From Octopus vulgaris (taxonomy: Eukaryota): a stretch of DNA of 64,000 nt. The stretch is taken from NCBI GenBank assembly GCA_951406725.2, contig OX597824.1:41292001-41356000 (forward strand), written 5' to 3'. The notes below the pieces were generated by a model. It made no database searches. It had not been told where the DNA came from and saw only the letters and a program-made list of their open reading frames with translations. A program made the position numbers and the translations under genes. Below, in pieces: positions 1,345-62,660 of the stretch; the first letter of the stretch is position 1, and each line of letters begins with the position of its first letter.

Positions 1345-1548
1345 CGTGTGTACCGTTGGCGATTTTTTTCCTCCGTCTTGCCTTCCTTGGATCTTTCCTG
1401 TTCCTATGTTTCTGACGAAGAGCTCCGCTCGAAACGTTAAATCCTCATTCTTTCTTTCCTTTCCTGAGCGTCCAATAACATTATACTTGTTCCACGTCCC
1501 CACGTTGTTGTGTTTTCTCTTTGTGTTTTCATGTTTGGATTAACACTA
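1345..1548 (+). mobile_element. Short HHR-bearing non-autonomous element (pLTR-like) between microsatellites
   Basis: Contains the HHR. Similar to 4135-4300(-) and 39020-39195(+). Its 3' end recurs at 6865-6925. Confidence 0.6.
1409..1441 (+). ncRNA. Minimal type I hammerhead ribozyme
   Basis: TTT-CTGACGA-A-GAGC(TCC)GCTC-GAAA-CG-TT-AAA. Intact core, palindromic AACGTT stem III. Confidence 0.75.
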
Positions 1549-1784
1549 TATATATATATCACGGCCAACAAAACTCTTATTAATAAGAAAACGTGTGTAA
1601 CAAGGTAGCGAATTTTTCAGAGTGGTTAGAAATTCGACCCGAATACTTGATTTGGTGACTCAAAGTCAAAATCTCACCGAGGTCAACTTAGCCTTTCTAT
1701 TTTCTTTCTCGTGTGTGTGTGTGTGTGTGTGTGTGTGTGTGTTTTGCTATGTTACAATTCTAGCTTATTTTGCTCGTAGGCGGG

Positions 1785-2145
1785 GTTGATTTGTCGTGGA
1801 TAATTTCGTATGCAGAACCATTACTAATTTGCAGAGGACATGCTCTTCGTCGATATTCACCCGACGGTTCATCAGTACCATTTCTGAAGCCGGTTGAATT
1901 ATCACGTCAGTGGTGGAGGTTGAGGGCGTTCTGCTTCCTCTTCATGATTCACGCTCTACTCATACACACTTCTACGCAGTAGAGCCCTGTCCTCGTATTG
2001 TTGTGAAAGTCTGCGAAGAATTTCAGCCACCGAAACACCTTCAGACCAAGGAAATCGGATCACTGATCTCTGTTCTTCGTTGGTGCACACTGACAGCTTT
2101 ACTCTGCAGCACCAGAAAGAAACTGAAGTAATCAATGTCAAATCT
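1785..2145 (-). pseudogene. Mariner/Tc1 transposase N-terminal fragment
   Basis: EEQRSVIRFPWSEGVSVAEILRRLSQQYEDRALLRRSVYE (mariner HTH), continuing with frameshifts as ...EMVLMNRRVNIDE...ISNGSAYEIIHD. Confidence 0.75.
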
Positions 2146-4223
2146 CGTTTGCATAACTACAAGAGTACCGCTTTTTAGCATATAACCGCCGAAGGCAGTG
2201 CGGCCAAGCTAAATAAGGTTTTGGCGAAGGTGTGGTTAATATTAACATACACTCCCTTGTAGAATGTCACTGACTTTTCAGTCATTGTTATCGCAAATAG
2301 CCTGCAAACTCACTAAAAATAATTATTGGCGACGGAAGCATTATTAGTATCAGAGGGCAATCTTTATACCCAACGTAACGTGGACGTCTTGTTAGAATGC
2401 CGAATATTGCTGCATTCGCCTTGAGAGGTTCTCTTCTATACAGGCATGGTGCATAAAAACACAGACATTTATCGTAGCAGACGAGATATAGGCATGTATA
2501 TATTCATCTGTATACATATACACGACTACATGCCTATACAAATATAGCCCTTCTAATAGAAAAGTTATATATATATATATGTGTGTGTGTGTGCGTGCGT
2601 GTGCGTGCGCGCGCTTGTGTGTGTTTGTGTGTGTGTGCGCATGTATGTATGTATATATATATATTCATATAAAAGAGTATAATATAAAAATAAATAGGTA
2701 TTTAATTATCATATCCGTTATCTTTATTCTGTAATTATCTATTATTGTAATCATCAATAATTGTCTATAATAATAATAATAATAATAATAATAATAATAA
2801 TAATAATAATAATAATAATAATAATTATTATTATTATTATTAATTGTAACCTTTTATTTATTATTTAATAAGGTTAATTCCTTTTATTATAAAGAATAAA
2901 CTGATATTTCATTGTCTTCTCCGTAATTTCTATTTTTTAATTATCCAGTAAGATCCTCGGTGATTGTATTTGTAGTTGAATATAATAATTCCTCAGTTAT
3001 TATAAAAGAAGGTTAATTCCTATAGAAGGGTTTATTATATCAAATAGATAAACAGGTAACTAATTATTGGGACGTAAAGTATTCAAGTTTCTATAAAGCA
3101 TTACGTAGCTTTTATTCTTTAGTTATCTATTAAGCATAACGTAGAATTTTTGCCTGCACTTTTTGTTCTTTAGATATTCAGTGACGTCACCAATATTAGA
3201 TAAATATACTCGTCTTCTATGTAAGGTTTTTTAAAATTTTTATTTTTATGTAGATTTCAAATTATTGAAAAATATGGAATTAATATGGCAGTTTTTATTT
3301 AAACATAAACAGTATGAGAGATCACTATGAGGATCTCTGGTATGCTAAAAATTGACGTCAAACCGTCTTACCACTAAATCTATGTTCTCAACTTAGTAAT
3401 ACGTTGAACTAAATTAGTTATTCAATGACGACGTCACTCTTGGTTGAATGAATGTCTAAAGTTAAAGTTGGTTTGGCGCTTCTTTTTGTCAGCGTTTTTA
3501 ACAGCTACAAGTCTTTCAGATGTTCCGTTAAAATTTCACCAAAATGGATTACCTTGATAATGTTGTGTTGACATAAATTTTCATACATATTATCAATTTC
3601 AATAATATGTAACACACACACACATATATATATATGAAATGTATATATATATGTGTGCGTGTGTGTGAATATATATATATATATATATATATATATATAT
3701 ATATATATATATATATATATATAATAAATAAATATGTATGTATGTATGTAGATGTTAACGCAACTGAAACAGCTGTTGGATTCTTAAGGTGTCATCTAAA
3801 ATAAAGATATGATTTTCTTAGTATTGATTGTTGTAAATATTTCGAATTTCATAAAATTCTGCACAAGGATTGTTGGATTTACCTGTCATACATGAGGATT
3901 TACTGGTATCTACTCGTTGGAAATTTAACCTTATTCCTTACACTGAGTGCTTAGTTGATATATGCCAGCATTATTAAATCCCATTTTTTCTTTTATATAC
4001 ATACATACAGGCATACATATTCACTCATATATATGAATATGGTATGTGTCTATCTATATATCTATCTATCTATCCATCCATATATATATATCAATATATA
4101 TATATATATACATACATACATAAGTAAGCAGAATTCATGAAAAAAAAAAACCCAAAAGACGAAGACAGGTGGTGTAGAAAACAAACAGATGTATTAGTAT
4201 AACGCTCGGGAATTGAAAAAGTT

Positions 4224-4257
4224 TTTAACGTTTCGAGCCTACGCTCTTCCACAGAAA
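4224..4257 (-). ncRNA. Hammerhead variant (core CTGTGGA)
   Basis: Reverse complement TTT-CTGTGGA-A-GAGC(GTAG)GCTC-GAAA-CG-TT-AAA. Confidence 0.55.
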
Positions 4258-59814: not shown

Positions 59815-61136
59815 ATCCATACGGTTGCTCAACAAATCTGATATAGTAGAATTTTTTTGAAATCATACTCAGTATTTTTAAAAGAACAACATTGGGTAAT
59901 GTAGTTCTAGATACACAGTGTTTAGTTAAGAAAAAGATCCGAAATGGTCAAAGTGTCTCTGAAAACAGGTCTGCCTGTTTAGGATTGATCATGAATATTA
60001 AGTTGCAAGTTTATGAGTTTAAAACGCAAATCTTCACGGTCTGCATTGAATGCGACTTTGTGTTTGCTTGGTAAATAAGGCAAATGGTTAAGCCCAAATT
60101 CAACCATATACGAATGTGGAGAAAAGTGAAATGAACTGAACAGTCGATCAAAGTTTGGGATATTTTACTTGGGAAATACACCACTTTCTGTGAGAAGTAA
60201 GAATTTATTCACCCCTTGACAAATTTTAACCCACCACCAGGGTTTATATCGACTCATCGTGAAGCATTAGTCTGTTCACTAATTGTATATATGTTGCTGT
60301 TGTTATATAGGTACTACTGTATCCATTTTTGTGTTTAAAATAAATCGCCTTTTAATCTGTTGTTTATTTTCATCTATGATATTCTCTTGTAATGTTTTTT
60401 AGCTTGTGGTTGTTATTGCAGCTAAGGCCATATATTTTAAATTAAACACTATGCATCTAGTACTACATAATTCAATATGTCGTTTAAAAAAAAACTGGAT
60501 TATGTGATCCGAAGAAAATTCGGCTGCTAATTCAGAAAGGTGAGCGATTATGATGAGGCTTCAACGTTTGTCGGTCATATATATAGATGCACTGTATGGC
60601 ATTGTTCTCGGAAGTTGTTGTTTGAGGTTCGGACACGTAGAGAGATACCAAAGATCTGACGAAGACACCGCATTTGGAATATCTTGAGCTGTTCAGTTCC
60701 CACTTGAGGATGGTTCAGGTTTCAGCGCTGTAGAGGACAGTTTGAACCAGCGTGCGGAAAATACGGAAATAGGGAAAACAATGGCAGCGTTGAAGACAAT
60801 GCTGATCATTCAATAATGGGTATGTATACCATTTACTTTTACGAGCAATTTACCTCAGAAACGGCCGTAGGACACTTAATATTTTTAAAGATTTCATTTC
60901 ATTTTAGTATATTCTATATAATAATCAAGTATGTGCTTGTCGTGATTCTTCTCTATCAATTCTATTGATGAAAGAGAGTTGGATTATTGTTTGTGGACTG
61001 AATTAACTGGTGTTATCCCCACTTATATATTTATCTTTTTATTTGAATTTCTTGAGGACTTTTAGGTGCAACCTTTAATCTGAGAGAAAATGAGAGTTTA
61101 TTTTGTATTCTTTCTTAAATATATATATATATATAT

Positions 61137-61291
61137 GACGGGCTTCTTTCAGTTTCCGTCTACTAAATCAACTCAAAAGGTTTTTGTCAACCCAAGAGTA
61201 TAGTAGAAGACATTTTCCTAAGGTGCCACGCAGTGTAACTGAACCCGGAACCATGTGGCCAGGAAGTAAGCTTCTTACCACGCCTGCGCCT
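61137..61291 (-). mobile_element. SINE family A 5' half
   Basis: Reverse copy. Confidence 0.75.
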
Positions 61292-62438
61292 ATATGTTAC
61301 TTTTAAATTTGTTAATTTATTATTCTTCCTGAGTAATATATTTATATTGAATATAAGTTACATAAAACTTCATGTTTCCTAAATTGTATATAATGTTTGA
61401 TTAGAAACGGTTAAATTTGTTCTAGCCGATAAAAAAAGAAGGTACCCGAGTAACTTGTTGAAAATTTACCTTGATAATAAAGAAAATAAACTGGTTTGTG
61501 TATGCGTCTGCATGTTTGTACGAGTCTGCATGTATAAGTGTGTATGTGTGTGCACGAATATGTGTATGTGTACGTGTGTGAGTATTTACGCACGTATGCC
61601 TTGTATTCAATTAAGAGCGCCACGTCATTTAGAAAATCAGCATATGCTTAATATATCTCAAACCACTGAACCATGTCGCATGTATGATTTTATCGACTTG
61701 GGTAAGGGCTTTGTTAAGAAGACACACATAGAGCTTTCTACTGAATATGTGGGCATATTACAGCTGTTCTATCAGTTTTAGAGACATTTTTGCATAAAAA
61801 TAAAATTAACAAAACAAAGAAAAAAAGAGAATAATGTGATATCTAAAACTTATAACAATGACACAAAAGACAAAATGGCGGTTTCCCAGCATGTTCACGA
61901 CCCACTGACTGGAGACTAATAAAAGAGTAAATTAAGTACAAATGTGGAAATGAAAAACAAAAAAAAAAAGAAAAGAAAAGAAAAAAGATGTCAGAATCAG
62001 TAGAACGTTGTATAAAATATAAACTGGTATCTGGTTACCTGTAATTCTGAGTTCAAATCAAGGTCCAGTTTTCGCTCTTCGATAAGATATGCAAAAGTCA
62101 ATAAAAATAGACAATTTCTTGTTATTTAACATGTTTCTTTGAGATGAATGAAGATTGTCCCTTTCAGCCATTGAGAAGCACAATTGTTCTGACCCCATTA
62201 AAAAATGTTTTCGAGGCCTCTCTTCATAGCGTCAAAGCAGCGTTGGCATCTGGTGACAAGGTTGTATAAAGAGGTTGAACAAAATAATGGGAATATTTTT
62301 TTTTATTTACATATATTTTTCTATTGGCAATGTGACAAATACAAATTTGTTTTGTCTGAACATGTGTTCATTTGTAGAATGTGTGCCTTGTACTTTTATG
62401 ATATAGCTCTCTATTTTTCAGTTTTGCATATATATATA

Positions 62439-62660
62439 TGGATCAAAACAGTTTGATTCAAATTCCGTGGTACTTAGTTTCGAAGCATAAGATAATGCTT
62501 ATCCTCAGCCGATTCAAATTTCTAGTGGTTGAAGATAAGCATTATCTTATACTTTGAAACTTTAAGTACCACAAAATTTGAATCAAGCTGTTTTGATCCA
62601 AACATGCAACTTGCAATAATTATGTTGAGCGCCCTTCTTTCGTTTATCCACTCTCAGGTG
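62439..62660 (+). mobile_element. Fold-back element with ~72-bp arms, each containing a hammerhead motif, in (TA)n
   Basis: Arms 62439-62510 / 62527-62600. Plus-strand HHR at 62525-62572: GTGG-TTGAAGA-...-GAAA-CTTTAAG-TA-CCAC. Minus-strand HHR at 62469-62510: GG-CTGAGGA-T-AAGCAT(TATCTT)ATGCTT-C-GAAA-CTAAG-TA-CC. Confidence 0.75.

Follow-up and report, generated by a model that had tools for sequence, protein, structure and literature searches.

The 64-kb window of the Octopus vulgaris genome analysed here (contig OX597824.1, positions 41,292,001 to 41,356,000, within a 2.8-Gb assembly; coordinates below are counted from the first letter of the window) is about 12% microsatellite, and contains numerous short repeats carrying motifs that resemble the type I hammerhead ribozyme (HHR), lying around the coding region of a Penelope-like element (PLE). 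An earlier reading of the letters of the window, referred to below as the original prediction, named 15 such motifs. The sequence comparisons reported here make it highly probable that these motifs are minimal hammerheads residing in repeated families, that four of these families (labelled B, C, D and E) are the 3' pseudo-long terminal repeat (pLTR) ends of distinct PLE lineages and the remaining families are likely to be so as well, that the motifs were probably left behind in short 5'-truncated copies by the reverse transcriptase (RT) and endonuclease of each lineage, and that several lineages carry fixed changes in the hammerhead core which are predicted to slow cleavage.

Cleavage by PLE hammerheads is weak in vitro, and it was dispensable for insertion in the one element that has been reconstituted. 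The variant families described here are natural test cases for what PLE ribozymes do, and the octopus offers a natural allelic series in which the combinations A9/C17, C9/C17 and C9/U17, the alternatives U4 and C4, and the variant U6 are all represented. Because this series occurs in recently active elements with open frames that are 99-100% identical, cleavage rate can be compared directly with copy success.

Detection of hammerhead motifs

A type I hammerhead-like motif is present at all 15 of the named sites, about 45-80 nt or less from the coordinate originally given for each, and several of the 15 lie on the minus strand. A strict descriptor matches the window twice (1412+ and 37669+, the only two of the 15 named sites that it passes), compared to no matches in 25 local dinucleotide shuffles, and when one core mismatch is tolerated the count rises to 7, against a shuffle mean of 0.48. 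A relaxed descriptor, which was tuned after the families had been seen in order to admit variant cores, yields 9 matches against none in 20 shuffles; these comprise eight of the named sites together with one overlooked site, 18673+. The single copies at the other seven named sites (13351, 13567, 14334, 17343, 46127, 48469 and 62508) are missed by the relaxed descriptor owing to private defects or an inversion junction, and alignments of the corresponding families show the motif in most of the other copies.

Comparable results were obtained from a genome sample of 60 evenly spaced 10-kb stretches (600 kb), in which the strict descriptor gave 8 matches (0-1 in six shuffles), the relaxed descriptor gave 29 (0-2 in eight shuffles), and a search by similarity to 13 families gave 43 (none in one shuffle). 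Genome-wide counts of exact copies run to tens of thousands, as against zero for reversed-pattern controls. The excess over shuffled controls on which the original prediction depended is borne out in both the window and the sample, and its count of about 15 motifs was sound in that all 15 are hammerhead-like, but it overlooked the sixteenth at 18673+. The proposed density of one motif per 4-5 kb describes this window and not the random sample, where there is one motif per 14-21 kb; with 9 motifs in 64 kb against 29 in 600 kb, the density in the window is higher by a factor of about 3. Extrapolation gives a genome load of about 1.3-2 x 10^5 hammerhead-like motifs.

Candidates of two further kinds were rejected. 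The one-mismatch match at 14755- belongs to no family and was taken as chance, and repeats containing CTGANGA at 5287, 11163, 16239, 17026 and 25737 do not have hammerhead geometry. The copies at 16239 (-), 17026 (-) and 25737 (+) form one repeat family with GAAA on the 5' side of CTGANGA and a (TA)n end, and those at 5287 (-) and 11163 (-) form a second (TA)n-ending family with CTGATGA and no GAAA after it. A general repeat search of the window was swamped by microsatellites.

Families and insertion pattern

The 15 named sites fall into 11 dispersed families (A to K), and at least 40 genome relatives were scored for each site from listings that favour query-like copies. The original prediction had distinguished roughly eight apparently unrelated elements, which is too few, and two of the families, A and B, are homologous to each other (71% over 133 nt). 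The self-complementary third stems are as had been described (AACGTT, ACGATCGT, ACAGCTGT, AACTCGGAGTT). The core CUGANGA / GAAA / UH is the family majority in C, E, F, G, H, I, J and K, and one fixed change from it is found in most copies of A and in B and D. Defects seen in seven of the window copies prove in the family alignments to be mostly private: canonical cores and C17 sites predominate in G and H, and most copies of I and J have G8 and a full stem I. In families E and K a U.U pair closes stem II, a variant which is known to be active (PMC3088659; PMC7229834). Stem covariation, whose absence was to count against the original prediction, is present between relatives, in the form of a paired change in stem I (GUUU/AAAC in A, CUUU/AAAG in B) and another in stem II (UGC/GCA in E, UAC/GUA in its relative).

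Microsatellite lies within 250 nt on the 3' side at 14 of the 15 sites, compared to 54% of random positions, and at 11 of the 15 the repeat is (TA)n. The original description of the elements as embedded in microsatellite holds to this extent, but the (AAT)n beside 37669 is internal to the 3' untranslated region (UTR) of family C and is not a target site.

Copies within a family share common 3' ends, while their 5' ends are mostly ragged (as seen in B, E, F, G, H and I) and inverted 5' partners are frequent. Among 43 copies from the random sample, solo copies predominate (31), inverted ones number 10 and tandem ones 2, and no tandem arrangement occurs among the 15 motifs of the window. Fixed 3' ends combined with ragged 5' ends and inverted partners constitute the PLE insertion pattern, for which 5' truncation and an inverted partner are typical (PMC8557442), and not the pattern of retrozymes, whose defining trait is a head-to-tail array of tandem units from which circular RNAs arise (PMC7229834; bioRxiv 10.64898/2026.07.22.740005). 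The retrozyme label is not supported for these repeats, and the description of them as minimal type I hammerheads which are tied to PLEs and derived from pLTRs is supported.

Further hammerhead families were encountered in the random sample (at L033, L034, L035, L042, L046, L052, L054, L070, L073, L080, L086 and L087), several of them with U3-A8 cores and GUC sites and some in inverted pairs. The U3-A8 family at 18673 recurs at L054, L062, L215, L342 and L067.

Reading frames associated with the families

Clustering of the flanks and matching of the clusters to pLTRs of autonomous PLEs, which had been proposed as a check, was achieved for B, C, D and E. Family D is the pLTR of the open reading frame (ORF) in the window itself. 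Family B lies in sense orientation 3' of its own RT, which differs from the RT in the window, at 20 of 30 RT-selected loci (seed included); family C lies in sense orientation 3' of a third RT at 18 of 30 loci, with five more having only an inverted upstream copy. An E-like hammerhead follows a related endonuclease at 7 of 8 loci, and family E itself has an endonuclease-like C-terminal peptide upstream at three loci. Since each of these four families has its own distant frame, at least four distant PLE lineages contribute to the collection, and the protein starting at 51019, whose like had been proposed to mobilise the repeats, is only one of several mutually distant sources. The copies of B, C, D and E are most simply interpreted, from their continuity with these frames, as 5'-truncated copies of autonomous families.

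The frames of D, B and a further family, M, contain a CX4CxxC linker and a CCHH endonuclease, and the frame read for C contains no linker. Family M, which was met with in the random sample and is, after D, a second very young PLE family, has a 775-codon frame in 4271-bp tandem units, about 100 near-identical matches among those listed (L288-L317, L412-L413), and a hammerhead with U4C and a U.U at the base of stem II. The clade labels used below for D, B, M, C and E are assigned by motif only, and the assignments of D to Nematis and of E to Hydra are in part our own presumption. Two apparent partners were discarded: the endonuclease near G in L141, because (TA)n and an inverted piece lie between the two, and the endonuclease beside F in L266, which leads to E-like HHRs and not to F.

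In family C the frame is followed by a stop codon, a tRNA-like segment with A and B boxes, (AAT)n and the hammerhead. The tRNA-like segment is absent from 25 of 59 copies; another 11 end within it, 18 have their ends in a 28-nt interval at its start, and 5 extend beyond. The box spacing is tRNA-like by eye, the Rfam tRNA match is weak (11.8 bits, E 6.9), and ARAGORN identified no tRNA in six loci. A tRNA-like segment in the 3' UTR of a Poseidon-type PLE was also observed at L364, L381 and L374. Family A differs from the others in that about 20 of 55 aligned rows begin at one 5' motif, upstream of which the rows have nothing in common except neighbouring repeats; it is the strongest candidate for a family that is genuinely non-autonomous, and is likely to be a non-autonomous derivative of the B lineage.

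The insertion mechanism suggested by these observations is one in which reverse transcription would begin in the tail just 3' of the hammerhead, at nicked AT-rich or (TA)n DNA, and would usually stop after 100-500 nt, often folding back to produce an inverted 5' copy. Such a start and early stop would explain why nearly every insertion has a hammerhead and seldom an ORF. Solo copies would afterwards decay neutrally. Selection would likely act on the ribozyme in source elements alone, where two motifs could pair via the palindromic stem III in partial-tandem transcripts, and the ribozyme would probably serve as a slow or protein-assisted processing site, as opposed to a step needed for insertion.

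The Penelope-like element in the window

The frame in the window (50860..53844, plus strand; 994 codons, with an ATG at 51019) encodes an RT, a CX4CxxC linker and a CCHH-type GIY-YIG endonuclease. The protein is 98% identical to one labelled Octopus vulgaris and has 394 homologues, and its Pfam matches to RVT_1 (E 0.002) and GIY-YIG (E 0.001) both fall below the Pfam cut-offs. The combination of RT and C-terminal GIY-YIG in a single ORF, by which endonuclease-positive (EN+) PLEs are recognized, is found in family D, as are partial-tandem pLTRs, an inverted 5' copy and a one-sided tail. All 62 of the scored genome matches to the frame have 94-100% identity, and most are free of stops. Full D units are partial-tandem, 4588 bp long, and have a 1312-codon frame beginning about 130 nt 3' of the HHR; relative to these, about 240 N-terminal codons are missing from the window copy, and its frame shifts near 50,900. 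The element, which had been described as intact, is a young but truncated and frame-shifted copy.

An inverted 5' copy of the pLTR, 563 nt in length, precedes the frame (50097..50659, minus strand), with the HHR core CUGAUGC (A9C) at 50257. The sense 3' UTR and pLTR follow it (53845..54598, plus strand), with the HHR core at 54381, cleavage predicted after 54414 (CUU), and a tail of about 57 nt (54542-54598), confined to the 3' side, which runs into the start of the next ORF and is succeeded by (TA)n. Four putative RNA contig sets cover this pLTR, with no accumulation of ends among the matches listed, and have C at 54414 at 91-100% of depth; RNA editing was considered and rejected at this position because a genomic C17 subgroup accounts for the C. 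From 0.55 to 0.72 of sampled words of the pLTR (54090-54545) also occur in sequence runs of three other organisms.

Lineage-wide changes in the core

In family B, exact copies with U6 number 15,954, as against 184 with A6, and all four letters occur at N7. Exact copies of family A number 8,333 with C4 and 3,506 with U4. CpG decay was rejected as the source of this difference: T is found at position 4 in 9 of 19 copies and G5A in none of the 19, and many diagnostic columns are linked, so that U4 and C4 define subgroups. In family D, the youngest, there are 1,750 copies with C17, of which the first 100 listed comprise 10 with the canonical A9 and 90 with C9, and 1,379 copies with U17, of which 99 of 100 listed have C9; the hammerheads beside near-identical D ORFs are C9/U17 in all 36 cases. 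In family M, 28 of 30 copies have C4, the exceptions with U4 being the diverged seed copy and one other. Families A, B and M thus have a single core change each and keep the rest, and D combines A9C with a change at position 17. The canonical states appear to be ancestral, judging by the general hammerhead consensus as opposed to a dated tree, and the fixed changes are predicted to slow cleavage.

Between subgroups of B, up to 47 of 128 flank columns differ, compared to none of the 11 core columns and none of the 18 stem columns, a comparison which is partly circular in that copies were picked by stem II, GAAA and a near-match core, and in which eight stem I columns were unused in the selection. 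In family A, non-CpG divergence is 0.9% in the core and 6.1% in the flanks. In family C, the core (3.1%) and the flanks (3.9%) decay alike, a pattern to be anticipated if the copies are dead and stem from few sources.

Evaluation of alternative explanations

Several results weigh against the interpretation of the repeats as pLTR hammerheads of distinct PLE lineages. Minimum-energy folding produced the three-way hammerhead fold in none of 12 window copies folded as monomers, and dimer folding produced the expected pairing of stems I and III only in H and J. Among the families compared to Rfam, only G matched the hammerhead models, below threshold (21.5 of 52 bits), and neither C nor B gave a hammerhead match; a scan of the whole window returned no hammerhead among the best 150 of 469 matches, which are dominated by microsatellite-like microRNA models. 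Strict descriptors and Rfam mostly miss these octopus motifs. A search of 15-65 copies each, over about 1.5-2.5 kb, gave no ORF partner for A, F to K or the 18673 family, although this absence is weak evidence because even in B and C the copies that reach their ORFs amount to a few per cent. The link for E consists of a peptide of about 47 amino acids lying 1.8-2.2 kb upstream, which is tied to Pfam GIY-YIG only via a relative. The partly circular comparison of B subgroups also belongs with these points.

The simplest alternative, that the motifs are chance matches within AT-rich, repeat-rich DNA, would account for the orphan match at 14755- and for the 1-9 one-mismatch matches that arise in shuffles of the 600-kb sample, but it has next to no probability given the nine real and zero shuffled matches in the window, the complete failure of the reversed patterns, and the positioning of motifs in pLTRs; for the named sites it is already refuted. 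The alternative that most families are independent non-autonomous elements, either retrozymes or SINE-like (short interspersed nuclear element) RNAs derived from pLTRs, which use PLE proteins in trans, appears improbable, but it draws on the shared 5' start of family A, on the seven families for which no ORF was found, on the concentration of C endings at the start of the tRNA-like segment (18 of the 34 copies that reach it), and on the derivation of retrozymes from pLTRs (bioRxiv 10.64898/2026.07.22.740005). The pile-up in C could equally be produced by a hairpin at the tRNA-like segment, and the scarcity of tandem copies, the continuation of B, C, D and E into their own ORFs and the ragged 5' ends of six families all speak for truncation. 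The original claim of non-autonomous families is not supported for B, C, D and E and has its best candidate in A; for F to K no partner was found in the copies searched.

With truncation by each lineage's own enzymes as the preferred reading, a separate question concerns the variant hammerheads with A6U, U4C and A9C, which it is possible, though doubtful, to regard as dead relics hitch-hiking in pLTRs after neutral drift in the source elements. Relics of this kind would be consistent with the lowered activity reported for A6C (below 0.1 per min) and the much reduced activity of U4C in vitro (PMC3088659), with the dispensability of HHR catalysis for insertion in vitro (PMC11167929), and with the success of Naiads, which thrive without canonical HHRs (PMC8557442). 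They would not be expected to keep every core position but one, as A, B and M do (or all but A9 and position 17 in D), to retain core and stems across B subgroups that are 36% apart in their flanks while all four letters occur at N7, or to show the low core divergence of family A, and U4C, U3-A8, A9U and U10.1-U11.1 are active in nature (PMC3088659, PMC10085705). A bolder proposal, which is offered tentatively, is that A6U (throughout lineage B), U4C (in A and in M) and A9C followed by C17U (in D) represent repeated, independent down-tuning of hammerheads by successful lineages with the rest of the fold under selection, the hammerheads acting as switches that are slow and gated by protein, or else as structural signals for dimerisation, and weaker cutting favouring spread, with A and perhaps short C as PLE-mobilised SINE-like elements.

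Family copies and other repeats in the window

The short element of family A (1330..1545, plus strand; about 240 bp with a fixed 5' end) has the core CUGACGA at 1412 and a predicted cut after 1438 (GUU); most genome copies have C4. The pLTR 3' end of family B occurs at 4125..4310 (minus strand; core CUGUGGA, with A6U, at 4254) and at 39014..39165 (plus strand; core CUGUAGA, with A6U, at 39075). Family E is represented by an inverted 5' copy (13233..13439, minus strand; core at 13351, a long stem II closed by U.U, stem III ACGAUCGU) and an adjoining sense copy (13439..13768, plus strand; core at 13567, private stem I mismatch). These are followed on the minus strand by the 3' ends of F (13804..13975; core at 13963, stem III ACUCGGAGU), of a diverged J (14229..14372; core near 14334, stem III ACAGCUGU) and of G (17141..17480), which has a canonical-type HHR with a GUC site, its core at 17343 and one private stem II mismatch. 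Directly after an inverted tail of family G lies a remnant of a PLE endonuclease C-terminus (17614..17826, plus strand), 41% identical to the window ORF. The overlooked U3-A8 family occupies 18637..18868 (plus strand), with the core UUGAAAA at 18673.

In the family C copy the tRNA-like A-box/B-box segment (37353..37447) is divided into an inverted copy (37353-37418, minus strand) and a sense remnant (37421-37447, plus strand), and is followed by the internal (AAT)n and pLTR end (37448..37763, plus strand), which contains a textbook minimal HHR with its core at 37669 and a predicted cut after 37704. The remaining copies are a diverged 3' end of I (46111..46230, plus strand; core near 46127, private G8C), family H with an inverted 5' piece at 48343-48425 (48343..48655, plus strand; core at 48469, private A13G and G17 in place of the GAAA and GUC-type (AUC) site seen in the majority of the family), and a head-to-head pair of K (62439..62604; cores at 62508 on the minus strand and 62529 on the plus strand, U.U at the base of stem II).

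The window also contains dispersed repeats of about 230 bp which are likely to be abundant octopus SINEs (10588-10820, 23267-23689, 27097-27333, 39191-39444, 44738-44964, 45547-45775, 47212-47446, 48845-49249 and 56640-56872) and two short frames without a Pfam match (5590-6039 and 28590-28967, both plus strand) which resemble C-terminal fragments of ORF2 of long interspersed nuclear elements. In the random sample, frames of 429 and 1038 codons at L033:2631-6886 (+) resemble a Ty3/gypsy gag-pol.

Comparison with known systems

That PLE hammerheads can occur as numerous solo copies has been described before; what is new here is the lineage-wide occurrence of the core changes A6U, U4C, and A9C with C17U. 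A literature search found no report of lineage-wide A6U or A9C, and Lunse et al. 2017, known to us by its title and reportedly concerned with many variant small PLE hammerheads that cleave as dimers, may contain some variants. A search for octopus hammerheads and "A6U" returned no paper among the matches listed, and the supplements of PMC4209133 and PMC3088659 may list such variants; U3-A8, U4C, A6C, A9U and U.U are in print as rare cases (PMC3088659, PMC10085705). A 2026 repeat annotation of Octopus vulgaris describes 31 recently active PLE families, and the words "ribozyme" and "hammerhead" never occur in its main text (PMC13282606).

The closest match is to the minimal PLE hammerheads of metazoans, whose mass solo occurrence has been described as "probably related to truncated PLEs" and whose activity as dimers is low (PMC4209133). 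These share with the octopus motifs the type I topology, the extra nucleotide after A9, the short palindromic stem III, the presence of many families in one genome, the predominance of solo copies or nearby inverted pairs, and the U3-A8 variant. They differ in number, 2,000-9,000 descriptor matches having been reported there compared to the estimate of about 1.3-2 x 10^5 in octopus (obtained by different methods), and lineage-wide A6U, U4C and A9C are unmentioned in the available part of that report. Non-LTR retrozymes (PMC7229834; bioRxiv 10.64898/2026.07.22.740005) are likewise short HHR-bearing repeats related to pLTRs, and in axolotl they have a U.U at the base of stem II, but they are tandem by definition, whereas only 2 of 43 octopus copies are tandem and four of the families run into ORFs.

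The PAc Poseidon element of Anolis (PMC11167929) resembles the octopus elements in having a pLTR hammerhead near the ORF start, an internal RT start with a one-sided tail, and AT-rich targets. Its cleavage is protein-assisted, catalytic mutants are without effect on insertion, and no RNA-seq ends were found at the site. The PAc HHR overlaps the start codon, in contrast to the D hammerhead, which has C9 and lies about 130 nt upstream of its frame, and the available text mentions no change at A6, U4 or A9 for PAc. Among the EN+ PLE clades (PMC8557442), D, B and M are of the Neptune/Nematis type by their linker and CCHH endonuclease, C is of the Poseidon type by the absence of a linker in the frame read, and the partner of E resembles Hydra.

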